Source: an uncultured Desulfobacterales bacterium (GTDB taxonomy: Bacteria; Desulfobacterota; Desulfobacteria; Desulfobacterales; Desulfosudaceae). Taken from it: a stretch of DNA of 28,851 nt. A program made the translations under genes and the position numbers. Below, piece after piece: positions 3,701 through 28,851 of the stretch. Positions within the stretch are counted from its first letter, which is position 1, and every line of letters starts with the position of its first letter. The notes beneath the pieces are model-generated. The model had not been told where the DNA came from. It saw nothing but the letters and a program-made list of their open reading frames with translations, and did not search any database. The stretch covers positions 1-28,851 of the forward strand of contig CAYSMV010000471.1 in NCBI GenBank assembly GCA_964432245.1. Reading direction: 5' to 3'.

Positions 3701-3747
3701 CTTCTATCTCTCCTTTTTAACTGTTATTTATCCAGCCCGGATTAAAA

Positions 3748-5460: not shown

Positions 5461-5483
5461 ATTGTTCGATGCTATCGAACAAT
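5461..5483. promoter_or_regulatory. operator copy 2 (ATTGTTCGAT-gct-ATCGAACAAT)
   Basis: Perfect 10-3-10 palindrome between irrE-like gene and AAA ATPase. Confidence 0.75.
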
Positions 5484-5497
5484 ACGGGCAAAAAAAA

Positions 5498-6199: not shown

Positions 6200-6202
6200 G
6201 GA

Positions 6203-6574: not shown

Positions 6575-6578
6575 TTTA

Positions 6579-6611
6579 GTTCGATAATATCGAACCAACA
6601 TGCCTTGTCAA
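6579..6611 (-). promoter_or_regulatory. sigma70 promoter of XRE gene overlapped by operator copy 3 (GTTCGATAATATCGAAC, 6579-6595)
   Basis: TTGACA (6611-6606), 16 bp, TATTAT (6589-6584); the -10 sits inside the palindrome. Confidence 0.72.
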
Positions 6612-7085: not shown

Positions 7086-7276
7086 TTGTCTGACCTCATC
7101 TTATCAAGATCGCCGGACCATTCCAGTTTTCCCCGAAACCGCTTGATTTTTTTCTGACTTTTCACTTGGACCAGAAGTTTCAAGCCCTCTTCTATGGCAT
7201 CCTTTTTCGTTTTGAGACCGGACAACTTAAGCGCCGATGCCATCAGCTTGTCATCTACGACCACATTTGTTCTCAT
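7082..7276 (-). CDS. vapB: VapB antitoxin (type II TA)
   Basis: MRTNVVVDDKLM...KTKKDAIEEGL...RGKLEWSGDLDKMR; 4-nt overlap with vapC. Confidence 0.92.
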   Translation of the reverse strand: MRTNVVVDDKLMASALKLSGLKTKKDAIEEGLKLLVQVKSQKKIKRFRGKLEWSGDLDKMRSDK

Positions 7277-7289
7277 TTCCTGCCTCCAA

Positions 7290-7316
7290 TGTGTATAAAT
7301 AATTATATTATACACA
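7290..7316. promoter_or_regulatory. vapBC operator palindrome overlapping a -10
   Basis: TGTGTATAA-N9-TTATACACA perfect 9-bp arms; TATAAT on minus strand at 7312-7307. Confidence 0.7.
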
Positions 7317-7437
7317 CTTGCAGTTGGGTTTGAAAGAATTCTTTGTGCTGCCTGTAACCGTATAAATATTGCCTGCCCGCTTGACCTTAAAAATAACGGA
7401 GCCCTTCCTTGGATCCTGTTTGTGATAACACCTTATA

Positions 7438-7467
7438 TTGACACCCGTGCCGGTATTGCTATATAAT
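7438..7467 (+). promoter_or_regulatory. consensus sigma70 promoter
   Basis: TTGACA, 18 bp, TATAAT; AAGGAG RBS follows before ATG 7516. Confidence 0.7.
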
Positions 7468-7515
7468 TTATCATCCCCTTAACTCTATAACCGCAGGCAA
7501 AGGAGTCCATAACCA

Positions 7516-8946: not shown

Positions 8947-9354
8947 ATGACAACCATACAAAAAAGTCTGCGATTACCCAGTGAAGCTGTAAAAGAGATA
9001 GAACGCCTGGCCGCCGGGACCGGTAAAGATTTTTCAGGATTGGCCAGAGATCTTCTGAAAGAGGCGATTAAAACAAGAAGATGCCCCGGCATCACCTTTG
9101 CCGATGGCCCAAGCGGAAGGAGAGCCAGAATAGCCGGAACAGGCATAGACGTCTGGGAAATCATTGCCTCTTATCATGGAGCGGGGAAAGACTACAGTCA
9201 GCTTAAACAGGCCTACCACTGGCTCAATGACCAGCAGGTCAGAGCAGCATTCTCGTACTATACCCTCTACCCTGATGAAATCGACAACCAGATAAAAAAC
9301 AACGAGGCATTGGATGAGGAGAAGGTGTTAAAAAAAACACCCCTTCCTGTCTGA
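8947..9354 (+). CDS. DUF433-domain antitoxin with N-terminal RHH/CopG-like region
   Basis: KSLRLPSE N-terminus; PGITFADGPSGRRARIAGTGIDVWEII...QVRAAFSYYTLYPDEID. Confidence 0.87.
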   Translation: MTTIQKSLRLPSEAVKEIERLAAGTGKDFSGLARDLLKEAIKTRRCPGITFADGPSGRRARIAGTGIDVWEIIASYHGAGKDYSQLKQAYHWLNDQQVRAAFSYYTLYPDEIDNQIKNNEALDEEKVLKKTPLPV

Positions 9355-9369
9355 AATGCGAGCTAACCC

Positions 9370-9726
9370 GTGAAGTATTATCTGGACGAAGATATCAGCC
9401 CCCGCGTGGCCGAGCTTTTGAGAAAAAACCGGGTTGAGGCCATAAGCGCCCATGAACAAGGGATGATAGGAACATCGGATGAGCAGCAACTTCTGGCTGC
9501 CGCCAAAGCCGGACGAGCCATGGTAACCAGAAACAGAAACGATTTTATTCGGCTAACCGTCAGCTTTTTCGAGGGACTGAAACCCCATCATGGATCGGTC
9601 ATAATCCCGCATTACATTCCAGGCCATGATTTTTCACTGATGGCCAGACTGCTGTCACACCTCGCCGACGAATATCCCAATGGTATGACGCCTTACACCA
9701 TAAAATTTCTGTCAATTGGTCCTTGA
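9370..9726 (+). CDS. DUF5615 family PIN-like toxin
   Basis: MKYYLDEDIS...SDEQQL..A...RAMVTRNRNDF...HHG; paired with DUF433 gene. Confidence 0.88.
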   Translation: MKYYLDEDISPRVAELLRKNRVEAISAHEQGMIGTSDEQQLLAAAKAGRAMVTRNRNDFIRLTVSFFEGLKPHHGSVIIPHYIPGHDFSLMARLLSHLADEYPNGMTPYTIKFLSIGP

Positions 9727-11576: not shown

Positions 11577-12171
11577 TTAAACTGCGTTTTTGAACTGTGT
11601 TCTAATCATCTTATCAAGCTCAGCCAGATAAGAGCGGCCATACGGCCCATTCTCAAGGCCCTGAACCAGATGCTCCGGAATATCCTGAACAATTTCCCGG
11701 CAGCATGATCCCGCCGCCGGCGCAATGGTCGCCACCGTGTCGGTATCCCCGCCCCAAGCAATGCTGCTTTTCAGTATGGCGGAAAGGGAATCGTTCCGCA
11801 TCAGCGATGTAATGGCCGCGCGCACGCTCATCCAGCCCTTTGAGCCGACCTCACCCTGCCATGGCTCGTTCCATTGCCCCGGCACATGCCGGCAGATAAA
11901 ATCCGCCAGAATACCCTTCTCTCTGGTCGCGATGAAACACCTCGACAAACCGGGAGGCGATATTTTCCGGAGTCCAGTCGACCCGCTCCACGACCAGCTC
12001 GGCAACCGCCAAGCTCATCTGCGTGTCATCAGTATACGCGCCGAGCTTATGACGATGCGTCGGATGACGAACGTAGGCTGACAAATCATTATGCCGCGAT
12101 ATAAAACTCCTGTCCCTGACATATTCAAATCCCGCGCCGTACGCATCGCCAATGGCCAGTTCCACAAGCAT
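11577..12171 (-). pseudogene. ADP-ribosylglycohydrolase (ARH/DraG family), internally deleted and frameshifted
   Basis: N-terminal half: AIGDAYG, YTDDTQM, REGYSGGFY; C-terminal half in another frame: GSKGWMSVRAA, GGDTDTVATIA; the middle catalytic region is missing. Confidence 0.88.
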
Positions 12172-14315: not shown

Positions 14316-14843
14316 TCATTCATACAAAAATCCCGGAATCCATAAATGCTTTTGCCCCGTTCTGTAGGTAAAGGCCTCTTTAACCGGGTCATTCAGCGCT
14401 ATGACGCCTCTGGCCTGTCCGGCAGCCGCGATACAATCGGCGTGGATAAAAAATTCCAGGCCGGTTAACTTTATTTCAAAGCAGATCTCTATATCCTCAA
14501 CGAATTTTGATATGGCCGGCAGCACGGCGCTTTGCAGATAGTCAACCGGCGTGTACCAATATTGGCCAAAAAACAATTTTTTGAGGGCCGGCCCAGCGGG
14601 CGCACTTTTATGAAATATTACCTCAAAACAAGGCACCGGTTCTTTCATTGTTTTCCTGATAAAATTTTCAAACATTTCCCTGGTCCGGGAGAGCGAACTG
14701 ATGGTTATTTCAAACGTCATGACATCAGAGAACTGGCCGCCTCTTTTTATTTTTGTGGCCAGATAAAGATCTGCCGGAAGTCTTTTACCCCAGGGCAACA
14801 TATACTCCAGAAATTCAATGCCGCCTGTTTCCATTTCTATCAT
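14316..14843 (-). CDS. hypothetical protein
   Basis: AGGAGG RBS 7 nt before ATG 14843; protein-like composition; no family recognised. Confidence 0.65.
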   Translation of the reverse strand: MIEMETGGIEFLEYMLPWGKRLPADLYLATKIKRGGQFSDVMTFEITISSLSRTREMFENFIRKTMKEPVPCFEVIFHKSAPAGPALKKLFFGQYWYTPVDYLQSAVLPAISKFVEDIEICFEIKLTGLEFFIHADCIAAAGQARGVIALNDPVKEAFTYRTGQKHLWIPGFLYE

Positions 14844-15135
14844 TGGTTCGCCTCCTTGTAGGTGCATATTGTCAGACTTTTACCCGCAGGCCGGTTCAAA
14901 AAATGATCGGATAAAAATTATGCCTCCCTGTAATATTAAAGACGGATCAGAATGATATATATGACAACGATAAAAAGCCATCGATAAAATAATTGTGTAG
15001 AACAGACAGGGTAATTGACATAAAATTTCATTTTTCCCGTTTATAGATATATTATGACCAATCCATAAAAAATAATACTGTGTTTCGTTATTATTCCAGG
15101 GATGATTTGTTCTTGATGCCGGATCGGTGGGCCTG

Positions 15136-15170
15136 TGTCGCAATTCGTCATCCCGCCAAGTGGAGCGAAA
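15136..15170 (+). repeat. 35-bp imperfect direct repeat, copy 1
   Basis: TGTCGCAATTCGTCATCCCGCCAAGTGGAGCGAAA. Confidence 0.8.
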
Positions 15171-15299
15171 CGGTGCCCGACCTGACGAAGCAAGCCCCGC
15201 TTAAAAACGGCATGATGGACAATAATCCTGAACTAAAATAATAGCTGGCATGCAATTTGAGAGTAAACACATGACATAACACTGAAGGTTAAACAAATG

Positions 15300-15981
15300 A
15301 AAAACATTGCAGAAATTGCGATTGACCCCGACCTGTCCAATGAAACCGGCAAAGGTTTCATGGCCAGGGGGCGACCGGAGGTAAGCAGCCTGACGAATAG
15401 TGTCCGGCGTTTACACCGGTTAAGGCGTGAAGACAGCCGCCGTGGTTCTTTGACAGACAGCTTAGTTGCAGCAGTAAAGATGAGACAGAGTAGCATCAGA
15501 CGTGCTCGATTCCGCTTGAATATAAACGTGTTCCCGGCAGTTGCCGCGGATATGAAGCCTTTTGACGCTACCCCCGTTTTCACGGACACGTTGAAAACGG
15601 GCAGCCAGCCGTCCCCGTCGTTCCATCCCTGTATGGGAACAATTGCACGGCCGGCTTACAGACGGTGCCAGTTCAGCGATTTCTCCGGCGGGAGCGATCG
15701 GGCACCGTGCCCGGCATCCACTCAAACCGCCAAGGATGCCTTTGGGCGGGCCTTCTCACGGCTCTCTATTTGTTCTGAATCGTCGCATTTAACCTGGAAT
15801 CAGGTTCAGGGGTCGGCTATTTGCCCCGTGTTCAGATTATCCCCGTAACAGGGTGCTGAAACGCCGCTCCCCGGACTTGAATTCATCGACGGGAAGCGGC
15901 AAGCAGCACGCACTCTGTCTTGGCCAAATAAGGGCCGGAAGGACAACAGGCATCATTTACATCCTTCCGGCTTTTATTTTT
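15300..15981. ncRNA. candidate large structured non-coding RNA (family unassigned)
   Basis: Seven stems found by eye, including a three-way junction and a compound long hairpin; overlapping ORFs look spurious; ends in a terminator-like hairpin. Confidence 0.45.
15934..15981 (+). terminator. intrinsic terminator-like hairpin
   Basis: GCCGGAAGGA-N18-TCCTTCCGGC followed by TTTTATTTTT. Confidence 0.6.
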
Positions 15982-16084
15982 AAAATTACCGTCTGCCGTC
16001 CTTAAACAAAATGAAAAACAATGCGTTTTGTGATACAAAATAACAGCCGCAAAAAAAAAACGTTATGCCCGACCTTGAAGGCCA

Positions 16085-16118
16085 TGTCGTAATTCGTCAT
16101 CGGCCAAGTGGAGCGAAA
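16085..16118 (+). repeat. direct repeat copy 2, followed by degenerate REP-like sequence
   Basis: TGTCGTAATTCGTCATCGGCCAAGTGGAGCGAAA; downstream CTGGATTC...GGAATAAC resembles the CTGGATTC...GGAATGAC hairpin at 6734-6761. Confidence 0.75.
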
Positions 16119-16229
16119 AATAGACGAAACTTCGTATATGAATCCGAGAATTAACTGGATTCTGATTTTCATCGGAATAACAAAACAACTTCAAACCGGA
16201 CTTTTTTTATAAATTCATAGCTTTTTTAG

Positions 16230-19200
16230 ATGACAGATCCGACCTCATTTAAAGACACCCGGCTCTGGCTGGCGCTGAAGGGATCCACGCCGGAAATTTT
16301 ATCCTGCCTGGATCAGCTCAACACCCTATCGGAGCTTTCCGTGGAAGAGCGTATGCCTTTTCTGGCGCGACTGCTGCCCTTAACCCGCCATGAGAACGCC
16401 CGGATCCGGAAAGCGGCCTTTCAGGCCTTATCAGGCGTGGCCGGTTATACCGGCCTGCAGACCCTGCTGACAGGCTGTTCCGATGCCGAACCGGAGACCC
16501 GGCAGGAAGCGCTGCTGGGTTTTCACGAATCCTGTCAGCATGACCCGAACCAGTGGATACTGGCCCTGTTTCATCCCGATGCGGACATGCGGCTTCTGGC
16601 ATTGGGGCAGAGAATACCCCGCGGAACAGAAGACCTGTTACTGGCCATCCTGCTTCTGTCAGCAGACCCGGCCTCCCAGATCCGCGTTGAAAAACATTTA
16701 AAGAACCATAACATACCGGTGGTGCATCTGCACTTACTGCTAAGGCTCCATAACAGCGGCCATGTTTCCACAGAAACGGCCAAGGCCCTGATTACCAGTC
16801 TTAATTGGACTTATTTGTTTGAAATTATCGACCTGCGTCACACAGATCTTACAGACATCCCTGACTACGCGTATTCTGCCGAAGAACCGCCCGAGCACAC
16901 GCCCCCGCCCCTCAGCGTGAACACCGCACCCCTGGCCTATCTCATCAGCCTTTTCTGGGAAAATCCCGCTGAAGAGACTGAACAGGACCAGGAAGAAGAG
17001 CCCTCGCCGCCCGAGGATTTCTGGAAAAAATTACACCGCTGCCCATCCATCTTCGATGGGGCAAGGTACGATCTTATCAAGGCCATTCATGCCGTTGCCG
17101 CCCACAAAAAATTCTGGATCCAGCCGGCGGCAGATACGCTGACAATGATCAGCATCCATGCCCTGGCCGACGAGCGCATCCCCCCTGAACTTCGGCGAAA
17201 ATCAAGCCTTACCATTATTAAACAGGCCGGAAATATAGAAAAAGACAGTCTTAAAACGATTAAGAAGATACTCAGGAACAAAATCTGTTTGGATGATTCT
17301 GGCCGACCGAACCTGACGGTTATCATCAGTGTACTATTAAGACTGGAACGCGCCGCCTCCGGCAGACCGCCTGACCCATACCGCATTTTGCTGAATTTAT
17401 TCGGTCTGGAGCCGATTGTCGACGCCGCAGTTCGCCAACCCCGGCTGGCAGGCTATCTGTTAATTCTGCCCGCTTCCCAGAAGAGCTGGTCAAGAAGGCT
17501 GATTTACCGCCGAATTAAGGACCATCCGCAAATCCCCGGGGCTTTGCTATATTGCGCCGTTATTGCCGGGACACTGCCCAGTCAATTGGGATTTCTGGCA
17601 GAATTAGACCCCGATATTCTCTTTAACATCTGCGAAGAGATATTTACACAGGAAGTCAGGCAAGAGATTCTCCTGTCCCGGCGAAAACTCCAGAAAACGG
17701 CTGAAATCATTGCCAACAAAATGACCGCTGAACAGGTTATCCCCATTGTCAGGCTCTGGTTTGACGTCCACTTACAGAAAGAAAGCTATTTCGGCCAGGA
17801 ACTGCTGGCCGATCTCGCGCGGGAAATATCAACCGACGCATTTCTGAAAGAGACAAAATCAGCCTCCCGCGAAGATCTGATAAAATTGCTGACATTAATT
17901 CCATGCTGCCCGGGCTTTCCTGTCGGTAAAGAGAACGCCCTGGCCATGGAACTCAAGCACCATCCGGATCCGTCTGTGGAGCGATGGTGCGCTGAGCGCG
18001 TCCTGAAAACTGATAAAAACGCCCGGGAGGATACTGAGGTTGACCCGTCCGCCCTGCTGTCGGACCAGGAAAAAAACAAGATTGTCTCTGCCGGCGACCT
18101 TGAGCTGAACGATCTCCTCCAGCCGGCTCTCAGGCACCAGCGGCAGGGCCTCTGCCGGACCTTGCTGGCGCGCCCGGCTCCTTACAGAGAGTCCGTTGAA
18201 GTCTGCGCCGCCGCCCTGAAAAGCCTTGATCCTCTGGAAGAGATAGATGCCGTGTTTCACCGGTATGGAAACAGCACCCCCTCTTTCCTGGAAAAACTGG
18301 ACCTTCTGATGGTCGGAAACAGCCGCCTTCCGGAATCGCTGTTCGGCAACTGCTTTCTATGCCTGTGGGAAGAACATTGCTTTGCCGCCGCCGGACAGAT
18401 AGAAAGCCTGCCCGGCGGTTTTACAGTTTTTATTGAAATCGGGGATAATCTGCGATCCGCGCCGATCAGGGATGTCATGTGGCTGACGCTGAAATACCTG
18501 GTGAGCATGTGGCGATTTCGCGACCTTGACAAACTAAAATCGATATTCACGCCGGATTTTGCGCACAAAATGGTGGACCATCTCACGGAAGGCAATGAAC
18601 CCGCGGCTAAAATCCTGATCAGAGCCTTTGAATCCGGTCTGCTTCCCTCACCAAGTATGACGAATGTCTCTCCGCGCGTTCGCTCCGAAATCCAGGATTA
18701 CCCGCCGAACATTCGTAAAATTCTAATGCCGTGGATTGACAGTACTGGGATCACGGGCAATTCCCTGCGGCTGACCGGAAAAAAGGACGAGCCTTCTAAA
18801 GAGATCACTCAAAAAATAACCGGGAGTATGGACACACAGTTTCTGCTCGGCTGCTGTCTGCATGCCAATGGCGGTGTGGTCAACGAGGCGGTCCTGCGCA
18901 TCATTGAGCTGGAAACGCCGCTCACAGGCCTGGCGCAACTGATGATCCGCGACCCGGCGCCTGACAGCATCGGCATTCTGACCGAGTCCATCAGCCTCTG
19001 GCCGGAAGGAGAAGCCCTGTCTATTCTGGAAAATGCCATCCCCCTGGCAACTACCCCGCTTGTCTCCCGCTTTAAGATCACTCTGGCCATGCTTGAGCGG
19101 GGATGCCGGCAATATGAGAAGCTGATATTTGAAATCCTGAACACCGAAACCGATTCTTTCTGGTTTCAGAAAAAAGACTGGGAGCGCCTCCTGAAACTGG

Positions 19201-21329
19201 GCCTTGATAAATCAACGCTGGTTGAAACCTGTGTCATCTCGCCGCAGCCCGTTATGTATCAGGAAGCAGTGCAGATCTTAAAGTTCAGCATTCGCATACC
19301 CCCGGACCGACGGATTAAGGCCCTGCGGTCATTTCTTGACCTGGGACGCAACCGTAAGCACACGGTCCGGCTGGAGGCCGCCCTCACCCTGGGACTCCTG
19401 GGTTGTCCGGATGGCTGGCCGATTATACTGACAGCCTTGCTGGCAGGTGAAATCGAGGGTGAAAAAACTATTGCATTTATTCTCGATTTGCCGGGTCTGC
19501 ATGAAGAAATGATTGAATCCGCGCTGATTGCCGGGGCTCATTTTTTCCCCTCCCGCTTGCTGACCGGCTTTTTAAAAAAGTGCTCCGCGCCATTGCTGAA
19601 AACCATTATCAGAACAACCAGAGATCCGGAATTGCGCCAGGCGGCCATCAACCACATGATCAAGGATGACCGGCACAACCCGACGATACTGCATTTAAGT
19701 AACATCTGCAAAGAGGGCATGCAGACCGGATTTGCCTTAACCGGCAAGCGCTTTCAGGTAAAAATGCTGGAAACCGGCGAGATCGGCTATACCCGCCTGG
19801 AGGGAAATGTTATCTACGCCACCCCCATTCCGGTAATCAGCCAGGCGCCTGAAGGCAGCCGGATCGTGCGCGGGGTGATTCTCCACGAAATCGGCCACCA
19901 CCTCTTTCATGCCGGCAAAGAGAGCCGCGAGGCCCATGAGGCGGCCGTGAATGAAAAAATAACGGACCTGTTGAATATCGTAGAAGATGAGCACCTGGAG
20001 CGTAATCTGCGCGTCAGGAACGAAACCTGGGGCGATGATTTTAAAAAGCTCGCCGCCTACGCCTTTCAGCACGCCGATCGTGAGGCCGATGCCGGCGACC
20101 TGCTCCGGGCCCTTGAGATCGACGCCTTTCCCGTTTTAACCGGAACCGTCATTAAAGTGGGCGTAAAAGAGGGCTGCGTCTCCTTCAATGCCGGCGGCAT
20201 CTGGCAGAAACTGGAAGAAAACCAAAACAGTTTTTCCCGGTTCATGCGCGCCCTTCGCATGGGACTCGGCAATCGTTATAACGACCCTAAAGTGGCCGCC
20301 GGGCTGAATCTGTTTAAACGCGGTTTCAAAAAGGCCTCTCCTGAACGGCTGCTTGAAATCGCGCGGGAGCTGAAAAAAATCTTCGGCCCGCGGGCCGCTC
20401 TATTGGAGAACCTGTCCTGGGAGGGCCTCTCTGAAGACGCGGAAACCCTGCTGATCGGCAGTGACGGCATTACCCAGGAAAATATTGACCGGGCCCTGGC
20501 CCGGACAGAAAAAAACGACAGTCTTTCCGGGAAAAAGGTAATAATTTACAATCAAAGCAAGGATACCTATTTTGAAAAAATTACCCGGATTGTCCGGCTG
20601 CCTTTTGACCTGAAAGCACATCAGGAATATGCCCAAAAAACCATGCGCGCCTCACGGCAGCTGCGTCCTTTTTTCCGGAACCTGGGGGTGCGATATCTGA
20701 AAGAACGCTTCCGCCTTTCCGGACGGCGGCTGGATCGCTCCCGCCTGCAGAAAATGGTTATCTACGGGGAACCACGGCTCATGATCGCCCGGATCATCAA
20801 ACCCGTAACCGATCTGTTCCTGAGCATTATTATCGACTGCTCCGAATCCATGAACCACCACAAAAACATTGAAAAAGCCAAACAGTTCGGCACCCTGTTA
20901 GCCGAGTCAACAGTCGGGGTAGACGGCCTTGATGTCCGCATTTTCGGCTTCACCGACCGGGTTATATACGATGCCGGCACACCCTTCCGCTGCGCCGTGT
21001 CGGCACTGGAAGCGGAAAACGGAAATAACGACGCGGCCGTCCTGTGGCACGCGGCCCGAATCGCTTCCGCCAGCCGCCGCGCGGTCAAGCTCCTGGTCAT
21101 GATCAGCGACGGCGCGCCGACCGCCTGCAGCACAACCGCCCTGCGCCTGCTGGTGCAGAGCCTTGCCCGGCAGCAGATATGCTGCGCCCAGATCGCACTG
21201 CGGAAATTAGACCCGGAAGATATCTGCTTCCCCTGGTACATCGTGCTGGACGAAGACGACCTTGCTTCATCCGTGAGTAAGTTCGGAGCAATTATGATAA
21301 AACTGGTAAAGCAGGCCATGGGAGGGTAG
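16230..21329 (+). CDS. 1699-aa HEAT/alpha-solenoid + zincin metallopeptidase-like + vWA protein (MoxR partner)
   Basis: HEAT-like repeats (HENARIRKAAFQAL, DAEPETRQEAL); VILHEIGHHLFH (H1219) plus LLNIVEDEHLE; MIDAS IIDCSESM (D1536) and MISDGAP; no clear SD. Confidence 0.87.
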   Translation: MTDPTSFKDTRLWLALKGSTPEILSCLDQLNTLSELSVEERMPFLARLLPLTRHENARIRKAAFQALSGVAGYTGLQTLLTGCSDAEPETRQEALLGFHESCQHDPNQWILALFHPDADMRLLALGQRIPRGTEDLLLAILLLSADPASQIRVEKHLKNHNIPVVHLHLLLRLHNSGHVSTETAKALITSLNWTYLFEIIDLRHTDLTDIPDYAYSAEEPPEHTPPPLSVNTAPLAYLISLFWENPAEETEQDQEEEPSPPEDFWKKLHRCPSIFDGARYDLIKAIHAVAAHKKFWIQPAADTLTMISIHALADERIPPELRRKSSLTIIKQAGNIEKDSLKTIKKILRNKICLDDSGRPNLTVIISVLLRLERAASGRPPDPYRILLNLFGLEPIVDAAVRQPRLAGYLLILPASQKSWSRRLIYRRIKDHPQIPGALLYCAVIAGTLPSQLGFLAELDPDILFNICEEIFTQEVRQEILLSRRKLQKTAEIIANKMTAEQVIPIVRLWFDVHLQKESYFGQELLADLAREISTDAFLKETKSASREDLIKLLTLIPCCPGFPVGKENALAMELKHHPDPSVERWCAERVLKTDKNAREDTEVDPSALLSDQEKNKIVSAGDLELNDLLQPALRHQRQGLCRTLLARPAPYRESVEVCAAALKSLDPLEEIDAVFHRYGNSTPSFLEKLDLLMVGNSRLPESLFGNCFLCLWEEHCFAAAGQIESLPGGFTVFIEIGDNLRSAPIRDVMWLTLKYLVSMWRFRDLDKLKSIFTPDFAHKMVDHLTEGNEPAAKILIRAFESGLLPSPSMTNVSPRVRSEIQDYPPNIRKILMPWIDSTGITGNSLRLTGKKDEPSKEITQKITGSMDTQFLLGCCLHANGGVVNEAVLRIIELETPLTGLAQLMIRDPAPDSIGILTESISLWPEGEALSILENAIPLATTPLVSRFKITLAMLERGCRQYEKLIFEILNTETDSFWFQKKDWERLLKLGLDKSTLVETCVISPQPVMYQEAVQILKFSIRIPPDRRIKALRSFLDLGRNRKHTVRLEAALTLGLLGCPDGWPIILTALLAGEIEGEKTIAFILDLPGLHEEMIESALIAGAHFFPSRLLTGFLKKCSAPLLKTIIRTTRDPELRQAAINHMIKDDRHNPTILHLSNICKEGMQTGFALTGKRFQVKMLETGEIGYTRLEGNVIYATPIPVISQAPEGSRIVRGVILHEIGHHLFHAGKESREAHEAAVNEKITDLLNIVEDEHLERNLRVRNETWGDDFKKLAAYAFQHADREADAGDLLRALEIDAFPVLTGTVIKVGVKEGCVSFNAGGIWQKLEENQNSFSRFMRALRMGLGNRYNDPKVAAGLNLFKRGFKKASPERLLEIARELKKIFGPRAALLENLSWEGLSEDAETLLIGSDGITQENIDRALARTEKNDSLSGKKVIIYNQSKDTYFEKITRIVRLPFDLKAHQEYAQKTMRASRQLRPFFRNLGVRYLKERFRLSGRRLDRSRLQKMVIYGEPRLMIARIIKPVTDLFLSIIIDCSESMNHHKNIEKAKQFGTLLAESTVGVDGLDVRIFGFTDRVIYDAGTPFRCAVSALEAENGNNDAAVLWHAARIASASRRAVKLLVMISDGAPTACSTTALRLLVQSLARQQICCAQIALRKLDPEDICFPWYIVLDEDDLASSVSKFGAIMIKLVKQAMGG

Positions 21330-21443
21330 AAAGACTGTCAGAAATGCACGCTTTTTGATATATGAAAAAATTCGGGGGGATACATTCCTAGTTTTAACTG
21401 TATACGTGCACGTGCACGAGTCCGCGTAAAGGAGAAACCACCT

Positions 21444-22568
21444 ATGTCATCCAGATTGAAAACCGAGGATATTGCCGTCGGCCAGTTAATGGAGACCACC
21501 TTCTGGGTTAATCCCGTCAAAGAATCCAAGTTCCGGTTCCGCGCCACCCACTTAAACGGCAAAAAAGCCCCCAAGGTCATTCTCAGCGACGACCCGGGGA
21601 TTAGGCCGGGCATCCCCTGCCTGGTCAAGATCGAAGCCATCAGGAAAGCGGAGCGGGATGACCGCGGCCAGATCGAGGTAAGCCTGCAGCACCTGCTGGA
21701 TTTAAACCTCAAGGGAATTTATCTGGATCCCGTCATCAGTATTAAACTTCAGGTCCTGCTGGAAAGCGGTTTGAATATCCTGCTGGACGGCCCCCAGGGA
21801 TGCGGCAAAACCGTTCTGGCCCGGAGCATCGCCGAATCCCTGGGCATGGAATTCATTTTTTACAACTGCAGCGCCGTGATCGAAGCCACCGACTTTCTGG
21901 CCAGCCTGCAAGTCGTGTCCGAAGAGGGACGGACGGTCACCCGGTTCATCAAAACCGATGTCCTGAAAGCCCTGGAAGAAGCCTGTGAACACCCCCGGAG
22001 AAAATACCTGATATTCCTTGACGAGTTCAACCGCTGCCCGGAGAGCGCCCGGAACGCGCTCATGCCGGTGCTGGACCACACCCGGCGGATCTTCAACCCT
22101 GTCAGCAACACTTTCCTTCAGATCGAGGACAACATCCAGTTCATCGCGGCCGTTAATCGCGGCAACGAATTTTCCGGCACCTTCGGCATTGACGCCGCCC
22201 AACTGGACCGGTTCGCCCCCCTGCAGATGGATTATCCGCCGGAAGAGGCGGAAGTGGACCTGATGACGGAAAGGCACCCGGAAGTCAGCAAAACGCGGAT
22301 CAAACAGGTGGTGAAGATCGCCAACCTCGTCCGCGCCAGCCATGAGCTCAACAAAGGCCTGTCGGTGCGGGCCGTGGATGAAACCTGCATATACCTGAAA
22401 CATCCCCTGCTGGAAAATAACACAGCTAAAATGCTTCCGGAAATCCTGAAGTCCGCTTTCTGTGGCCGCTTCCCCGGCCGCTGGGACGACCCCGATTCCG
22501 ATGCCGGCCTGGTCTGGAGCATCATCAGGGGAAGTATAGAAAAGTCCGACAAATGCTGCCGCAGGTAA
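21444..22568 (+). CDS. MoxR-family AAA+ ATPase with ~95-aa N-terminal extra domain
   Basis: Walker A GPQGCGKT, Walker B IFLDEFNR, AAVNRG, AQLDRF; AAAGGAG RBS. Confidence 0.93.
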   Translation: MSSRLKTEDIAVGQLMETTFWVNPVKESKFRFRATHLNGKKAPKVILSDDPGIRPGIPCLVKIEAIRKAERDDRGQIEVSLQHLLDLNLKGIYLDPVISIKLQVLLESGLNILLDGPQGCGKTVLARSIAESLGMEFIFYNCSAVIEATDFLASLQVVSEEGRTVTRFIKTDVLKALEEACEHPRRKYLIFLDEFNRCPESARNALMPVLDHTRRIFNPVSNTFLQIEDNIQFIAAVNRGNEFSGTFGIDAAQLDRFAPLQMDYPPEEAEVDLMTERHPEVSKTRIKQVVKIANLVRASHELNKGLSVRAVDETCIYLKHPLLENNTAKMLPEILKSAFCGRFPGRWDDPDSDAGLVWSIIRGSIEKSDKCCRR

Positions 22569-22570: not shown

Positions 22571-22918
22571 TGTAGTGGTCAAGTAAAAACGGACACAAAA
22601 TTAAGCAACTTTTAAATACTGTTCTTTCTCATAAGCCATAGGAGACAGATAGCCCAAGGTAGAATGAAGCCGTATACTGTCATAGAAGGTGATATAATCC
22701 AATATTTCCATCTCGGCTTGTTTCCGGGTTGCGAAACTATAGGCTGTCAGCCGTTCTGATTTCAGAGAGCGGAAAAAGCGTTCTGTGGGGGCATTGTCCC
22801 AACAGTTTCCTTTTTTCCAACCTATACCTGTACTGTTTCCGTTCCTTGACCATGTGAAGCTCCTTTCATGTTGTGAATCAGAGCTTGGCACATTGTCCAG
22901 TTCTTGGGGACCACCGCG
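22571..22918 (-). mobile_element. internally deleted IS3-family element (348 bp, both ends retained)
   Basis: IR TGTAGTGGTC-N10-GGACA at 22571 and CGCGGTGGTC-N10-GGACA on minus from 22918; RBS + orfA start MVKERKQY (ATG 22853) joined to orfB C-terminus KGNCWDNAPTERFFRSLKSE...HSTLGYLSP. Confidence 0.88.
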
Positions 22919-23083
22919 TAAGAGGACGGCAGGGCCGGTCGGCAAAGGGGATGACCGGTCCGGGCAAGTGTCAGGAAGAAACACGACCTTGTCGGCGCTA
23001 AGGTCATGCGGCAACCAGGAGCGGAGCCTGCCTGTCGGCTCGGCTGAAAGGTTAAGTATCTGCATATGGATATCAACCGGCAT
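22919..23083 (-). pseudogene. N-terminal fragment of an RtcB-like RNA ligase family protein
   Basis: GGAG RBS; MQILNL...WLPHDLSADKVVFLPDTCPDRSSPLPTGPAVLL resembles the RtcB LPD..PxG N-terminal motif; cut by the IS3 remnant. Confidence 0.55.
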
Positions 23084-23158: not shown

Positions 23159-24160
23159 TTATGATAATTTTTCGAGATTAAATCTCACATGCATATGATC
23201 GGTATGCGGCGCCGCCCCGTCTCCGGCGTAACGCAGAACCTTCTGCAACCGGAGAACTGTTGCCGATGGCATTCGCTGCTTTTTCGCCTCCTGGATAAGT
23301 AATTCTTCTATAAAAGGCTCTACCAGAATCATATCAACTCCGGCTGCCGTTTGCTCCAGCAGAGACACAATCAGAGCAAGATTGGCCGGGCAGTCAAATT
23401 GCCGGCCCTGGCATACCCCATTCTTGTTATAGCGCAACCGGTAGCCGATACGAGCCAGAGAAGGACGTTGCGGATATAAACGGCCTTTTCCGTCACGCCC
23501 GATATACAAAAGATCGACATCATAGCCATGCTTGTGGCTGAGATGTTTGAGAAGGCTGCCTCCATAAGCGCCGCTTATATCAAAATAAGCCATGCCGGCG
23601 CCGGGATGACGTGCGGCAAAATCCGCTGAGGCTACCTTCAAGGCGGATACAAGCGGCTTCTGGCCGTAGCACCGGCCGGTCAGCCAGAACATGGGGTTTT
23701 GCACAAACAGATTTTCCTGCCAAAACGGCATCAGAACAAGGTCCGGATGATGAGGCGCGACCAGACGATAGAAATAGCAGCCAGGGAAAAAAAGCAGAAT
23801 CAGCAGGAGGATCAGTCCGGCTGTTACGATCAACAATCGTTTCGATTTCTTCTGATGAAGAGAAGTCGCAGCGGCGTCCCCCACATCTGACGGTTGCTGA
23901 CCGCATTCACCGCCCGATGTTAGCGGCGATCCGGAATAAACGGCCGAGGTATTGGATGAATATCTGCTTAACTTATGAATGTGAAAACCCTGCCAGCACA
24001 CCAGAAAAATCAGCATCAGGGTAAAAACCGGAAATATCACCAGAAAAAGAATGAAGTTTATTTCCGTATAAGTAATTCCCAGCAAATTGGCAAGATTCAC
24101 GGTAAAATCAGTGCAGAACCAATATAAGGTTCGAATTATCCCGTCTATTTTATCCATCAT
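23159..24160 (-). CDS. membrane-anchored MepA-like (LAS/M74) murein endopeptidase
   Basis: Two hydrophobic segments, then DISGAYGGSLLKHLSHKHGYDVD and HTDHMHVRF Zn motifs. Confidence 0.8.
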   Translation of the reverse strand: MMDKIDGIIRTLYWFCTDFTVNLANLLGITYTEINFILFLVIFPVFTLMLIFLVCWQGFHIHKLSRYSSNTSAVYSGSPLTSGGECGQQPSDVGDAAATSLHQKKSKRLLIVTAGLILLLILLFFPGCYFYRLVAPHHPDLVLMPFWQENLFVQNPMFWLTGRCYGQKPLVSALKVASADFAARHPGAGMAYFDISGAYGGSLLKHLSHKHGYDVDLLYIGRDGKGRLYPQRPSLARIGYRLRYNKNGVCQGRQFDCPANLALIVSLLEQTAAGVDMILVEPFIEELLIQEAKKQRMPSATVLRLQKVLRYAGDGAAPHTDHMHVRFNLEKLS

Positions 24161-24167
24161 TCCGGCC

Positions 24168-24575
24168 CTATTTCATTCCGCTTTGCAAATCTTTTATTCG
24201 CCTTCTCTGGGCCAGTACCAGTACGATCAGAAAGAGCCATGGTAAGGGGAAGCCGATCAGATAAATCAAGATACAGGCCTGCTTGTAGTTCAGGCCGGGG
24301 AGGTTGCCCAGAAGCGCAATATTGCCATTATAAAGAGTACCCGCTGCCTTCACAATAAAACTATTTTTCAACCCGGCATAACGCTGCTCAACATGCCGGC
24401 AGCCCTTGTCATGGCAGTATCTTGAACAACGATTTGGATCATATCCATGAGTAGGCGGCGGGGAAAAATGATTTACGAAAAACATGACGCTGAAACAAAA
24501 GAAAAGGCCGGCCATTAATACCAGCACCAGATCACGCACTATTTTAAATCCGAATTTGAGCACAACGGACCTCAC
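24168..24575 (-). CDS. hypothetical membrane protein
   Basis: Two TM segments flanking CSRYCHDKGCRH. Confidence 0.7.
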   Translation of the reverse strand: MRSVVLKFGFKIVRDLVLVLMAGLFFCFSVMFFVNHFSPPPTHGYDPNRCSRYCHDKGCRHVEQRYAGLKNSFIVKAAGTLYNGNIALLGNLPGLNYKQACILIYLIGFPLPWLFLIVLVLAQRRRIKDLQSGMK

Positions 24576-24600
24576 GCCCGGAATAAACTATTAACCGTAC

Positions 24601-26247
24601 TCACCTTTTTTTGACCACCCCGATCACATTGGGAATGGGCCACAGGGTCATGTTGCCATCATCCTCGAAAAAGCCGGTCTCATAACTGCCCGCCCAGTAT
24701 CGTTCCTTATCGCCTGATTTGACATAAAGGGATGCTTCCGGCCCGCCTTCAACGTACATGGCATTCCTGATATTAAGCGGAAGTGTTAAAAGAATATGGT
24801 TAAAATCATGCACCGAAAAAGGAGTCCGGCTGTGAATAAACAGCAGGCAGCCTTTTTTGTCCATGGCCACGGCAGCGATGCTGTATATTTTATCAGACTG
24901 CAGCCAGGTATTTTTTCCGTTAAGGCTGATCATCCTGAAATTCTGAATAACGGTATGATACTTATTAATAAGATCCTGCCAGTCCTTCTGATGATAGCGG
25001 TCGATGATCTGCACCGCCGGAACTGATTTGTTGGACGGGTTGAAGGCCAGAAAAGCGCCGAACCTGGAGTTGATCAGGCCGTTGTTGACGTGGCTGAAGT
25101 TTTTCATATAGCCCGTGCTGGTCTTGTGGTCCGTATCATACATACTGGCGTTGATAACTGCGACCAGGCCAAAAGAATCAGCCCAAGCTTTTGCGGTTTT
25201 GTTTTTGCCGCCGCGCTCCGAAGCCGAAAGCAGTTTGAGATCGTAAACGGCAGGATCAATCTTCAGAACCCTTATGGGGTAATTACAGATCTTTGACTTT
25301 TGCGGAGACTCAAACTCTCCCAGGAAAAGACCGTCAGCTATTTTCTCCCAGGCCGGCGCCTGAAGGGTAGCCCCATTTGAGAGTTGGTATCTGCCCTGGC
25401 TGTCGACGCGCATGTCCGGAAGTTGCCGGCTGGATTCAAAATAATCATACCCCGGCTTTAAATTTCCCCAGAGGGCGATCAACCCCGGCTGATCCGAATA
25501 ATCCCGCTTCAGTTGAGCCATGCCCTCATCGTTCAATCTTGTCGGAAAAATGTGGACCGGTATCTGTGTCTGGCCGTTTTCCCGGGACTCCACCGCCGCC
25601 AGGTACAACTCCTTGATTTTGTCGTCGGTAATAGGCAGACAGCCGATGGTCGCACAGGCGCCATGGATAAAGATATCACCGCCCAGCCTGCCCTGAACAC
25701 CGAGAATCCGGTCCGAACGATTGGGATAATCGATACGAAGGGATAGATGGTAGCTGCTGGTCGGATTAAACCCGCTGATATAATAAAAACCCTCGGGAAT
25801 CTGCCCGTCTCCTTCCTGCCGCTTCGGCCCCAGCGTCCCGGAAGCCGGCCCGGTGTTGCCGGGATAAGTACAAATATTATAGGCGGTAACCAGATCAAAT
25901 CGCGCGCCCGCGCCTGAACGCGCCCAGAGTTCCAGCCGGTTCTCTTTTTTAAACACCCGGATAAAAATACCGGCCGGCGGCCAGGCAAGCTTCTTGTCAG
26001 CAAAAAGGGCTTCAACCGCCGCCGCCTTTTCTTGAAAAGCCGTCCGCACCCGGCTGTACCTCAGCTGATCTGCCTTGAACTGCGCCTGCGCAGAATCAGG
26101 GATTAAAGATAAAACAAATATCAGCAGAAGCGCCTCCGCCAGCCGTTTTCCGGCCTGAACCCGGCTCCTTTCAGCCGCGGTTTTCCACCACTGCCTGGCA
26201 GAATTGTTGTCACGGATTTTGTAAAATGAGGCGCCAGCCTGATTCAT
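24601..26247 (-). CDS. YkuD-fold DpaA/YafK(LdtF)-like enzyme fused to phosphodiester glycosidase (NAGPA-like) domain
   Basis: GPKRQEGDGQIPEGFY, SYHLSLRIDYPN, IFIHGACATIGC (His/Cys); C-terminal VINASMY...AMYVEGGPEASL; ATG 26247 overlaps upstream stop (ATGA). Confidence 0.85.
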   Translation of the reverse strand: MNQAGASFYKIRDNNSARQWWKTAAERSRVQAGKRLAEALLLIFVLSLIPDSAQAQFKADQLRYSRVRTAFQEKAAAVEALFADKKLAWPPAGIFIRVFKKENRLELWARSGAGARFDLVTAYNICTYPGNTGPASGTLGPKRQEGDGQIPEGFYYISGFNPTSSYHLSLRIDYPNRSDRILGVQGRLGGDIFIHGACATIGCLPITDDKIKELYLAAVESRENGQTQIPVHIFPTRLNDEGMAQLKRDYSDQPGLIALWGNLKPGYDYFESSRQLPDMRVDSQGRYQLSNGATLQAPAWEKIADGLFLGEFESPQKSKICNYPIRVLKIDPAVYDLKLLSASERGGKNKTAKAWADSFGLVAVINASMYDTDHKTSTGYMKNFSHVNNGLINSRFGAFLAFNPSNKSVPAVQIIDRYHQKDWQDLINKYHTVIQNFRMISLNGKNTWLQSDKIYSIAAVAMDKKGCLLFIHSRTPFSVHDFNHILLTLPLNIRNAMYVEGGPEASLYVKSGDKERYWAGSYETGFFEDDGNMTLWPIPNVIGVVKKR

Positions 26248-27110
26248 CGTGCCGCTTTCACCTTCATCAGAAGCTGCATTTTGAAACAGACTACAATAAT
26301 GAAAAACGCAAGAACCCAGAAACCCGTATGTTCCGCCAATAATTGATAGATTGTCCCAGGAACGGTGATCCACCCGCTGTTACCAAAGGGCATCAAGCCA
26401 TATAGCATCAGGGCCTGAACCGTAAAAAGCACGACTTTAAAAAACAGGCAGATAACAAATAAATACCACACCGCCCTGAATATGCGAGGGGATGAACGCC
26501 TGCGGTCTTTCCCCTGTGGCAATCGAAGCAACAGATCCAGCACCATCACAAACGATAAAAGAGCAAGTACCGCCACGCAACCCCAGTTGATAATATAAGG
26601 TATCTGTCCGGCTTCAGCCGGGTCTGAAACACCGAAAGCGTCCTTCATGATCTGCACGATCTCCTGACTCGATGGCGACAACATTGTCACGCCCGGAACA
26701 ATTTCTTTAACATCTTTACCCTTTAATATGACGCCATCGGGTACAACCATGCCCGGCTTGTCAGGAAACAATAGATTGATGTAGCCTTCGCCGACCACTA
26801 AACCGTCTTTTTTAATTTCAGCCGACAGGCCTTTGGTCAGATAGTCTCTTTTTTCCGGATCGATATTGTCAATTTTCACCTGAATCAGCACGACTCCCGG
26901 AGACGGGCTATGCGGCGGGGCCGCCACCTGCCCTACTACTATTCCATCTCCCATCACCCGATCACCGACAGTAATCCCCCGGGCATCTTTGAATTGAAAA
27001 CTGATCGTCAAGGCATTTTGACATTTCTCGCCGGCACAGCCAGCTACCACACAAGCAATCATCGCAATTGCCAGCAGCGGTAAACAGCTTGTTCTGACTG
27101 AAATCTTCAC
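26244..27110 (-). CDS. MCE/MlaD-domain lipoprotein with three C-terminal TM helices
   Basis: Lipobox VVAGC; FKDARGITVGDRVMGDGIVVGQV MCE motif, GLVVGEGYINL; hydrophobic C-terminus; GGGAGG RBS. Confidence 0.78.
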   Translation of the reverse strand: MKISVRTSCLPLLAIAMIACVVAGCAGEKCQNALTISFQFKDARGITVGDRVMGDGIVVGQVAAPPHSPSPGVVLIQVKIDNIDPEKRDYLTKGLSAEIKKDGLVVGEGYINLLFPDKPGMVVPDGVILKGKDVKEIVPGVTMLSPSSQEIVQIMKDAFGVSDPAEAGQIPYIINWGCVAVLALLSFVMVLDLLLRLPQGKDRRRSSPRIFRAVWYLFVICLFFKVVLFTVQALMLYGLMPFGNSGWITVPGTIYQLLAEHTGFWVLAFFIIVVCFKMQLLMKVKAAR

Positions 27111-27330
27111 TATCCCCCTCCCGAATTTTGTAAAATCCTTATAAATCTGTTTAAAGACGTTACTGCTTAATAATGTAACTTCAGATTTTGAAAATGTCGC
27201 TGGCTGCTCAGGCAGCTTCTTTTTCCGGGCCGAACAGGTCGGTGGACACCATCATTTAGACAGTCGATTCCCCGAGTTAATTAAAGTTTAACAAGCCGAA
27301 CTTGACGTAATATTTGAATAAAATGGGCGG

Positions 27331-28851
27331 TCAGCTGATTACCTTATATGCGCCGTTTTCAAAAAAAACAGTAACGGCTTCAGCCTTCTCAAATTTTTCC
27401 TGGTTGGCAAGAGCAATCTGTTTCATGTGGCCCTCGAAGGTCGCTTTCAGGTTGCGAACACCGAATTTATCAAAGTTTGCTTGGTCGAGAATATTCTTAA
27501 TTGCAGTATCGTCCAGTTTGAAACTGCACGAAAATTCGGGAAGCGCATTAAACTGTTCCAGCATGCTGCTGATAATCTCCCGTGCGACATCTTCGCCGAT
27601 CTTGCTGAACGCACTTATTAGCCTTATTCTTCCCACAAACTCTCTTCTAAAATTTCCCTTGTCTTTGTCACAAAGTTGTTGCAGTCGTTCTCCATCCGAT
27701 GAATCCGCAGACAAATCCTGTCCCAGATTGCTGGTCAGAATAAATATGAAAGGCCGGCAGTTTATTTTTCTCCCCCTGTTATCGGTTGTTGACCCCTTGT
27801 CAAACACTTCCAGGAAGGCGTCCTGTATCTGGCGTTCCCGGTTGTTACCGCTCTGGGTGACTTTTTCGAACTCATCCAGTATGACTATGCCAGAATCATA
27901 TGAACTGATGAAATTAAGAATGGGCGAACTATCTTCATAGCCTACATAGCCAGGCGCGGCACCTGTTATTACGCTTTTGTCGGTAGCGGCGCCCATATTG
28001 AAAAGCAAAGCCCTGCCGTCATCGCCCCACAGTTCACGAGTGAGAGTGATAGCAAGTTCGGTTTTGCCCACTCCCGTGGGCCCCATGAACAGCATAACAA
28101 GAGGCCTTTCAATTTTTGTCAGGAGAAAAAAATGGGATCGGATGGTTTCCAGAATCTCTTTCAACTGCAAGTCCTGACCCCTGATCACGCGCGAAACATT
28201 AGCCGCAATCTCCTGAAAAGATTCTTCCCCTGAAAGACGGAGAGATATTTCACCAACTTTAAAACGTTCCTTTATCAATGTTTTGGTTATGGTCGAATCA
28301 GCACTCTGATTTAATCGCGAAATAACATCTGAAAGAATCCGCTCCCCGCTCCGGGGAAGCGCCTGCAATGGATTAAGCTTTTTAGCTGTCCAGTAAAGAT
28401 AATCCAACGTAAGGTCATCAATGATTAGTTTTTTGGTTTTGTTGTTATCAATAATTTTTCTGAATATATTGACAATTACTTCCTGGGGCAACTCATCTAA
28501 ATTAACCCTTCCAAAGCGTTGAACAAACGCTTCATCATCTCCTACGACATCCCTCCGGAACTCATAGTCAGTGGTCGCGCCGATTGCTGGAAACTCGCCG
28601 TTTGCCAGAGCCGGCTTTAAAGCATTCCGAATCGTTTCATTGGCCATGAACTGATGAAACTCGTCGAAAAAAACGATAACTTCAGCCCTGTGCGCCTTTA
28701 CCTCTGATATAAGGTTACTTACACGTGCCTCCAGGGAGCCTGCGACACCGGTATCACGGATCAGCTTGGTATATTCTATTTCAAATATTTTTACCTTGCG
28801 CAGTTTCTCAGGTATTGCCGAATTTGCTTTGTCTGCCATCCACGCAGCCAG
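27331..28851 (-). CDS. Clp/Hsp100-type two-domain AAA+ ATPase (5'-truncated by window edge)
   Basis: Frame open to 28851 (LAAWMADK...); NBD1 Walker B VFFDEFHQF, LKPALANG, IGATT; NBD2 GPTGVGKT, GAAPGYVGY, ILDEFEK, ILTSNLG, REFVGRI, FGVRNL. Confidence 0.9.
   Translation of the reverse strand: MAAWMADKANSAIPEKLRKVKIFEIEYTKLIRDTGVAGSLEARVSNLISEVKAHRAEVIVFFDEFHQFMANETIRNALKPALANGEFPAIGATTDYEFRRDVVGDDEAFVQRFGRVNLDELPQEVIVNIFRKIIDNNKTKKLIIDDLTLDYLYWTAKKLNPLQALPRSGERILSDVISRLNQSADSTITKTLIKERFKVGEISLRLSGEESFQEIAANVSRVIRGQDLQLKEILETIRSHFFLLTKIERPLVMLFMGPTGVGKTELAITLTRELWGDDGRALLFNMGAATDKSVITGAAPGYVGYEDSSPILNFISSYDSGIVILDEFEKVTQSGNNRERQIQDAFLEVFDKGSTTDNRGRKINCRPFIFILTSNLGQDLSADSSDGERLQQLCDKDKGNFRREFVGRIRLISAFSKIGEDVAREIISSMLEQFNALPEFSCSFKLDDTAIKNILDQANFDKFGVRNLKATFEGHMKQIALANQEKFEKAEAVTVFFENGAYKVIS

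Follow-up and report, generated by a model that had tools for sequence, protein, structure and literature searches.

Among AAA+ chaperone systems, pairs of a MoxR-type ATPase and a von Willebrand factor A (vWA) protein rank with the most widespread and the least understood. To my knowledge, the clients of all characterised examples are proteins (Rubisco, NO reductase, chelatases, pre-ribosomal assembly factors). Here I describe a giant vWA protein, its ATPase and a small structured RNA encoded in a stretch of 28,851 nucleotides (nt) from an uncultured Desulfobacterales bacterium (contig CAYSMV010000471.1; the window, hereafter). The three probably make up a single module, composed of the RNA, an adaptor of 1,699 amino acids (aa) and a ring ATPase, which could serve either conflict or stress response or the specialised remodelling or quality control of ribonucleoproteins (RNPs). 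Its closest known relatives are the remodelling machines NorQ/NorD, CbbQ/CbbO and CobS/CobT, of which NorQ/NorD serves FeB insertion into cNOR and has been studied by cryo-EM (PMC13036017).

Like these machines, the module joins an AAA_5 ATPase of the MoxR class to an adaptor, and the adaptor follows the NorQ/NorD plan of an N-terminal domain, a linker, a vWA domain with a pore-inserting finger, a metal ion-dependent adhesion site (MIDAS) and a conserved C-terminus. Unlike all three, it has a solenoid of ~1,120 aa, an invariant HExxH...E motif and a unique basic N-terminal domain on the ATPase, and it co-occurs with a dedicated RNA but has no client operon; identity to these systems is ~15-18%. 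A pair of a MoxR ATPase and a metallopeptidase-vWA protein has also been described in group 2.2 jumbo phages (Iyer et al. 2021, PMC7824862), so this part of the architecture is already known. There too a MoxR-type ATPase accompanies a vWA protein with an N-terminal zincin-like domain, and the best phage matches of the module's proteins are phrog_249 (ATPase) and phrog_1576 (giant protein). The jumbo-phage proteins, however, lack the giant solenoid, and no RNA partner was reported for them (PMC7824862).

Three further systems invite comparison. The MoxR-vWA ternary conflict systems (Kaur et al. 2020, PMC7159879) share the MoxR-vWA core, the addition of a system-specific third component, and a phyletic bias towards Myxococcota, Planctomycetota and other complex bacteria. 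In the present module, by contrast, the third component would be an RNA and not VMAP, iSTAND, FtsH or a beta-propeller, variable effector domains are absent, and the ATPase, a member of the CbbQ/NorQ/CobS branch, is without the VMAP-type N-terminal motifs described for those systems (PMC7159879). Midasin (Rea1/MDN1) has AAA_5 modules, a long helical region and a finger-bearing MIDAS domain, and acts on an RNP, the eukaryotic pre-60S particle, but it is one polypeptide with six tandem AAA domains. The possibility that the ATPase is specifically midasin-like was rejected because the best single midasin domain scores 30.9 bits, below NorQ at 38.7 bits; the 80-bit top match in the PDB sums midasin's six AAA repeats. 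Finally, Ro60 (Rsr) and its Y RNA combine alpha-helical repeats, a vWA/MIDAS domain and a dedicated small structured RNA, but Ro60 has no AAA+ partner and the giant protein has no TROVE domain. A Ro60-like reading of the giant protein was likewise rejected (no TROVE in Pfam; Foldseek probability 0.9, TM-score 0.2), and the Y RNA and YrlA models gave no match to the RNA in the Rfam search. Full-text literature searches returned no published description of either the giant-protein family or the RNA.

The giant adaptor and its ATPase

The open reading frame (ORF) of the giant protein occupies positions 16230-21329 of the forward strand and is followed, after 114 nt, by that of the ATPase (21444-22568, forward strand; 374 aa). 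Both ORFs are as the original prediction gave them, and the HEXXH, NIVEDEH, MIDAS and Walker motifs that it read in them are present and invariant in homologues (T1575 of the MIDAS nearly so). The giant vWA protein and the ATPase are a discrete conserved family, far beyond chance. A word-indexed search returned at least 156 full-length homologues of the giant protein with lengths of 1,600-1,780 aa, and the family lies mainly in Myxococcota and Planctomycetota, named homologues coming from Polyangiaceae, Nannocystales and Sandaracinaceae in the former and from Lignipirellula and Gemmataceae in the latter. A search of 1.84 billion representatives with a C-terminal profile (580 aa), matches being clustered at 50% identity, recovered ~446 clusters at E <= 1e-30, nearly all of 1,600-1,800 aa, as well as 648 clusters at E <= 1e-10 and 2,573 at E <= 1e-3. 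Since few more-distant relatives lie beyond the 446 clusters, the giant protein appears to constitute a family of fixed architecture.

The two genes belong together. Across 80 genome loci the ATPase gene is near the giant gene in ~70 and in most follows it by ~10-190 nt; where the genes are not adjacent, a single ATPase orthologue lies elsewhere in the genome, as at 6.66 Mb in a Pirellulaceae chromosome and at 6.32 Mb in Lignipirellula cremea. The ATPase is thus the dedicated partner that it had been proposed to be. One metagenome-assembled genome (MAG) from the Gemmatales (G045, with loci L010 and L019) carries two paralogous giant genes with a single ATPase orthologue and a single copy of the RNA, both of which adjoin the L019 paralogue.

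The first 1,119 residues of the giant protein (16230..19586) make up an acidic alpha-solenoid of the HEAT/ARM type. AlphaFold2, run with the family alignment, models the N-terminal part as an uninterrupted all-helical solenoid of ~1,120 aa (pLDDT, the predicted local distance difference test, 86.7; predicted TM-score 0.70), so the HEAT-like solenoid of the original prediction stands, but its length of ~1200 aa has to be shortened because the zincin-like domain begins near residue 1150. The sole Pfam match on the giant protein is one HEAT_2 repeat at residues 47-96, and fold searches with the solenoid returned generic HEAT/ARM proteins at low TM-scores (CAND1, karyopherins, designed repeat proteins) and no specific structural relative. 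The solenoid has a median isoelectric point (pI) of 5.7 in 38 homologues. Within the family its identity is 20-50%, falling to 22-27% for distant homologues; that of the C-terminal module is 37-68%.

The C-terminal module is basic (median pI 9.4) and has two parts. Residues ~1150-1440 (19677..20549) correspond to a NorD/CobT-like N-terminal domain of zincin-like character followed by an Arg-rich linker, and residues ~1453-1699 (20586..21329) to a vWA domain with a finger insertion and a conserved C-terminal tail. The key residues are retained in all of 38 divergent homologues: H1219, E1220, H1223 and H1227 in and after the HExxH motif (19884-19898), N1249, D1253, E1254 and H1255 in the NIVEDEH motif (19974-19994), and D1536, S1538, S1540 and D1627 of the MIDAS, which is intact here (DCSES, 20835-20849) and in which only T1575 is nearly rather than strictly invariant. 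The vWA domain also carries an inserted beta-hairpin finger, with the motif GRRLD in the window; GRRxD is conserved across the family at the predicted fingertip.

Several comparisons place this module with NorD and CobT, as the original prediction had done when it called the module CobT/NorD-like with an HExxH domain. An AlphaFold2 model built from the family alignment (pLDDT 82.7) aligned over the whole length of the C-terminal 580 aa to AlphaFold-DB clusters named NorD or VWFA at E = 1e-14, the NorD-family clusters covering model residues 6-573, at a TM-score of merely ~0.34. For the vWA fold (model residues 334-580), VIA-align gave Z-scores of 19.9 for the MDN1 MIDAS domain, 19.4 for that of Rea1 and 19.1 for the NorD vWA domain, other vWA domains scoring at most 17.2, and Foldseek matched NorD of the NorQD complex at 2.6e-8. 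In sequence-profile comparison CobT comes out nearest to the vWA domain (E = 9e-6), and the Pfam families VWA_CoxE, VWA_2 and CobT_C are found in 19-25 of the 38 homologues.

The HExxH region is modelled as a three-stranded sheet, the HExxH helix and a later helix bearing a Glu, an order of elements that would be expected of a small gluzincin. The invariant H1219, E1220 and H1223, with E1254 as the putative metal-ligand Glu further on, have the pattern of a zincin-like metallopeptidase. Pfam Zincin_1 is sub-threshold (E 0.05-0.1 in 4 of 10 homologues), phrog_1576 matches the zincin-like stretch at 1e-4, and the embedding neighbours of the region are phage CobT-domain and DUF2201_N clusters (0.83 for DUF2201_N); fold searches with the 580-aa model were dominated by the vWA domain. 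The domain is therefore best called putatively zincin-like, on the strength of its invariant motifs and predicted secondary-structure order, family-level support being weak.

The ATPase opens with a family-specific basic domain (residues 1-105; pI 9.4) that matched nothing in Pfam, in a PDB profile search or in the Atlas, and continues with an AAA+ core of the MoxR class, resembling CbbQ, NorQ, CobS and GvpN. Its Walker A motif (GPQGCGKT, residues 116-123; 21789-21812) and Walker B residues (D193-E194; 22020-22025) are invariant in 15 orthologues. Pfam AAA_5 (PF07728) is the only Pfam match, at 61.6 bits against a cut-off of 22 (1.1e-16). The GvpN model also reaches 61.6 bits (8e-17), well under its own cut-off of 266.8, and the ATPase did not qualify for any of the named equivalogs GvpN, NorQ or CobS. 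Its nearest characterised relatives are the phage CobS family phrog_249 (1.9e-26), NorQ (5e-9), CbbQ (1e-7), GvpN and CobS, and NCBIfam holds nothing specific for either protein. Identity among the ATPases is 58-67% across phyla and 86% to the nearest copy, N-terminal domain included.

A pseudoknotted RNA that accompanies the pair

Upstream of the giant gene and on the same strand lies a structured RNA with a core of 94 nt (15657..15750), found by the covariance model R1 and composed of two helical domains, P1/P2 and P3/P4. The core sits within a wider conserved stretch (15472..15939) that shares 77% DNA identity with positions 7241-7712 of the closest locus, L007 from a Wenzhouxiangella MAG, compared with 67-71% for the adjacent coding DNA, and that I take to be non-coding because tblastx matches it in all frames and on both strands. 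In unrelated lineages, shorter matches to the stretch precede the giant gene. Positions 15640-15902 of the window also match a second copy in L007; the two RNA copies there (L007:5179-5272 and L007:7426-7519) are 2.1 kb apart and both upstream of the giant gene, and the Wenzhouxiangella MAG is the only examined genome to have two.

Covariation supports the structure. A seed alignment of seven sequences gave the two-domain fold with compensatory changes in 11 of 28 pairs, and the resulting R1 model, which scores 105.6 bits on the window copy, returned 66 matches in 86 loci, nearly all on the strand of the giant gene. Compensatory double changes now appear in 25 of the 28 pairs and 94.3% of cells are paired, compared with 39-50% in slid controls, although the alignment was fitted to the R1 model and these counts lean towards the structure; none of 500 shuffles reaches the observed covariation values. 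The minimum free energy structure of the window copy is the consensus (z = -3.13). A further 5-bp loop-loop pairing links the two domains, GGCGG in the P2 loop with CCGCC in the P4 loop in the window, and in 60 of 66 sequences the P2 loop GGYGG and the P4 loop CCRCC are complementary. Its variants include GATGG:CCATC (ten times), GGCGG:CCGCC (five times) and AGTGG:CCACT, GACGG:CCGTC and GGTAG:CTACC (once each), and a variant loop fits the partner from its own sequence in 18 of 26 cases, as against 89 of 1,040 when combined with consensus-type loops. By these comparative criteria the RNA is predicted to have a compact fold, stabilised by a kissing-loop pseudoknot. A search of Rfam 15 found nothing at the gathering threshold in the whole window and nothing at E <= 1 in positions 14800-16300, suggesting that this is an uncatalogued, new bacterial non-coding RNA with an unusually clear covariation signal.

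The RNA is probably longer than its 94-nt core, given a second element downstream. An SCRTCGAY box lies within 120 nt 3' of the core in 25 of 65 loci, compared with 7% of control windows and none of 65 upstream windows. The element, with a consensus of about GUGCCRUCGAUG, stands 8-94 nt 3' of the core, often after a variable hairpin (for example L009:310-330 and L011:7655-7675, among the RNA 3' flanks in L008-L081); the window copy is degenerate. The RNA region of the window is also bracketed by a 35-bp direct repeat (15136-15170 and 16085-16119, 91% identical), which ends ~110 nt before the start codon of the giant gene and may be a cassette boundary or a REP-like element.

The position of the RNA bears on how it is related to the proteins. 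About 55 of the 66 matches lie 50-1,500 nt upstream of the giant gene on the same strand, usually at 150-500 nt and with a median of ~326 nt before the first ATG; in loci L020, L076, L080 and L083 it lies on the opposite strand, though still adjacent. Whole-genome scans, that of the window's own genome included, found one RNA copy per genome, or two in the Wenzhouxiangella MAG. In three genomes the RNA is unlinked: in Minicystis rosea ~95 kb separates it from the gene pair, which is on the other strand, in the Pirellulaceae chromosome all three components are apart (giant gene at 0.32 Mb, ATPase at 6.66 Mb, RNA at 6.93 Mb), and so they are in L. cremea (~3.18, 6.32 and 3.46 Mb, respectively). 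A common cis target of these unlinked RNAs was considered and rejected, the genes downstream in Minicystis and the Pirellulaceae genome being unrelated alpha/beta-hydrolases. Yet the RNA keeps company with the ATPase. A class-level sample around Minicystis (Polyangia-type) had the ATPase in 10 of 151 genomes, eight of which account for every occurrence of the RNA (8 of 150), and a sample around the Pirellulaceae genome (Planctomycetia-type) had both in the same 2 of 150, so that across ~300 sampled genomes, which are not phylogenetically independent counts, the RNA never occurred without the ATPase.

From the unlinked copies, the orientation and the restriction of the RNA to genomes with the ATPase, I read the RNA as a separately transcribed, trans-acting third component. 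An RNA-protein link, which had been put forward as conceivable but unsupported, now has strong comparative support in the covariation, the co-occurrence and the unlinked copies.

Horizontal transfer and the accessory region

The giant gene was found in none of 40 relatives, including two 99%-complete genomes of the same genus. Positions 500-2800 of the window (an AIR-synthase-like gene and tsaD) are syntenic with the same-genus genomes at 75-76% identity, whereas positions 23160-28800 have no counterpart there, which puts the module within an accessory region of at least 26 kb. The host TsaD shares 77% identity with that of a genus mate, 56% with that of Minicystis and 46% with that of the Wenzhouxiangella MAG; the ATPase of this last genome, at 86% identity, is far closer than its TsaD, a clear sign of horizontal transfer. 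By these comparisons the module is accessory and horizontally acquired here; it is also rare. Searches of PLSDB plasmids, INPHARED phages and IMG/VR turned up no orthologues, and for the RNA the last gave 36 chance matches to the conserved-loop pattern and one marginal covariance-model match (E = 0.09). A fragment of an integrase core (rve; 22601..23083, reverse strand; Pfam rve_2 7e-14, rve_3 3e-11), which is not part of the machine, lies directly 3' of the ATPase gene and may mark an insertion boundary.

Elsewhere the neighbourhood is unremarkable. All-against-all clustering of the ORFs flanking the pair in 81 loci revealed no third conserved protein or effector, and no VMAP, iSTAND, FtsH, beta-propeller or variable effector partner, nor were the client genes nor, cbb, cobN or gvp conserved near the pair. 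In other genomes the flanks are ordinary regulatory and metabolic genes (PII/AmtB, GlnE, kinases, SecDF), and homologues were not found in enzyme-maturation operons of the kind that the original prediction had named as the finding that would overturn it. The RtcB neighbour that it mentioned is absent from the window. One locus differs: L004 (ENA contig ctg86472l) holds a 38%-identical copy of the trio amid many small unannotated ORFs, with a Macro-ADP-ribosylglycohydrolase gene, a split MetRS gene, an RtcB fragment, a NIF phosphatase and an Apyc1-like lactamase as neighbours, an unusual context that is possibly degenerate or element-like.

The accessory region of the window itself contains further genes. 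At 3075-6601, on the reverse strand, a CapH/CapP-like pair of an XRE protein and an ImmA/IrrE peptidase (capP 7.8e-24) stands upstream of a classical AAA ATPase resembling IetA (7.6e-23) and of a DUF1257 protein, a candidate for a separate regulated module adjoining tsaD. A DUF433 (ribbon-helix-helix-like) gene and a DUF5615/PIN-like gene separated by 15 nt (8947-9726, forward strand) are a probable toxin-antitoxin module. Further on, an ADP-ribosylglycohydrolase recognised by Pfam is spread over two overlapping reverse-strand ORFs (11577-12171), with 11851-12171 matching the N-terminal part of the model and 11577-12005 the C-terminal part, and is probably a frameshifted pseudogene. PcfJ is among the local neighbours of the module, and the block to its right (23160-28851) encodes a ClpB-like ATPase, MlaD, YkuD/NAGPA and an M74 peptidase; the ClpB-like protein matches the PADLOC candidate models PDC-M37B and DolB (~1e-20 to 1e-24).

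Such surroundings raise the question of defence. In an anti-phage or conflict system, the solenoid would sense an invader or a damaged complex, the MoxR motor would release or activate the zincin protease, and the RNA would be a sensor, decoy or inhibitor as in retron or ToxIN-type systems. The rarity, patchiness and horizontal transfer of the module fit this idea, as do its phyletic bias to large-genome, 'complex' bacteria, its invariant peptidase motif, the precedent of MoxR-vWA cores in conflict systems (PMC7159879), and the presence, in the same accessory region, of the CapP-like (8e-24) and IetA-like (8e-23) genes, the DUF433/PIN-like pair and the integrase fragment. However, PADLOC-DB 2.0 gave no significant match for either protein (the best being IetA at 1.2e-6 over 37 P-loop residues and a HEAT repeat at 9e-4), the VMAP, iSTAND, FtsH, beta-propeller and variable effector partners are all missing, the genes that flank the module in other genomes are ordinary, and nothing was found on the plasmids, phages and viral contigs searched. 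The ATPase, moreover, is single-copy and 58-86% identical across phyla, unlike fast-diversifying defence genes. The defence-like island of the original prediction is real in the sense that the accessory region holds CapP-like and IetA-like genes, but this setting is specific to this genome, and the defence reading built upon it was not borne out by the PADLOC search, by a conserved effector, by flanks in other genomes or by phage, plasmid and IMG/VR orthologues. A defence role is neither supported nor excluded by the sequence comparisons made here, and I regard a conflict system as rather unlikely.

How the machine might work

By analogy with the cryo-EM structure of NorQD (PMC13036017), the ATPase would assemble as a hexamer with the vWA finger in the pore of the ring, and the adaptor's conserved C-terminus would dock on that ring. 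ATP hydrolysis could then twist the vWA domain against the N-terminal parts of the adaptor, stretching the basic Arg-rich linker, so that a client held by the MIDAS site and the acidic 1,100-aa solenoid would be remodelled, and the invariant HExxH...E domain may go on to cleave a protein that is bound. Most likely, the RNA would be a trans-acting, stoichiometric partner of the complex, whether as scaffold, specificity factor or client. It would probably bind the basic C-terminal module (median pI 9.4), the basic N-terminal domain of the ATPase, or both, these being the most plausible RNA-contact surfaces because they are basic. If so, this might be the first MoxR/vWA-type AAA+ machine to work as an RNP, in which a pseudoknotted RNA is an integral subunit, or the dedicated client, of an adaptor driven by a NorQ-like ring, and which spreads horizontally as a three-part kit with genes not necessarily linked; I put this forward tentatively.

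A number of points weigh against such a machine. The hexamer and finger mechanism is argued by analogy only, and the zincin fold is putative. Neither protein showed a recognised RNA-binding domain, and an RNA-partner model sits awkwardly with an acidic solenoid. The locus was found in two DNA metagenome runs and in no RNA run. The co-occurrence survey scored only the top candidates in each genome and may have missed a few occurrences. Finally, in most loci the RNA is upstream of the giant gene on the same strand, where a cis-regulatory role is possible.

This last point leads to another explanation, that the RNA acts in cis as a leader of the giant-gene operon, being a riboswitch or attenuator and not a partner molecule. 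The placement of ~55 of the 66 RNAs, 50-1,500 nt (median ~326) ahead of the giant gene on its strand, would be that of a leader, and the compact pseudoknotted fold resembles a ligand-binding aptamer. A leader, however, does not explain why the RNA is unlinked in three chromosome-level genomes, where it lies ~95 kb, ~280 kb or megabases away, with unrelated genes downstream in two of the three, or why it is divergently oriented in at least three loci and on the opposite strand in four (L020, L076, L080 and L083). The distance to the start codon is also long and variable, and no general signal of an intrinsic terminator follows the core: by mean folding energy, the 50 nt downstream come to -13.0 kcal/mol, compared with -15.4 kcal/mol for random windows from the same loci. 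Taken with the co-occurrence above, this makes a leader improbable. The chance is slimmer still that the module is a metal- or cofactor-insertion or enzyme-activase chaperone of the NorQD/CbbQO/CobST type with an unlinked protein client and a merely regulatory RNA, for although the nearest characterised relatives of both proteins are NorQ/NorD, CbbQ, CobS/CobT and GvpN, conserved client genes (nor, cbb, cobN, gvp or others) are missing around the pair, those systems contain nothing like the 1,100-aa solenoid or the invariant HExxH, and the RNA is kept even when unlinked.

Thus, a trans-acting RNA that works with the adaptor and its ATPase is the reading I prefer. This class of machines would gain an RNA component from a family whose MoxR-vWA pair is strictly accompanied by a dedicated RNA, and the invariant peptidase motif and the 1,100-aa solenoid suggest that its substrate is large. 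The biology of the RNA and the pair is testable in the cultured strains Lignipirellula cremea and Minicystis rosea DSM 24000. If the proposal is true, the module would be a functional counterpart in bacteria of midasin-type RNP remodelling or Ro60/Y-RNA surveillance.

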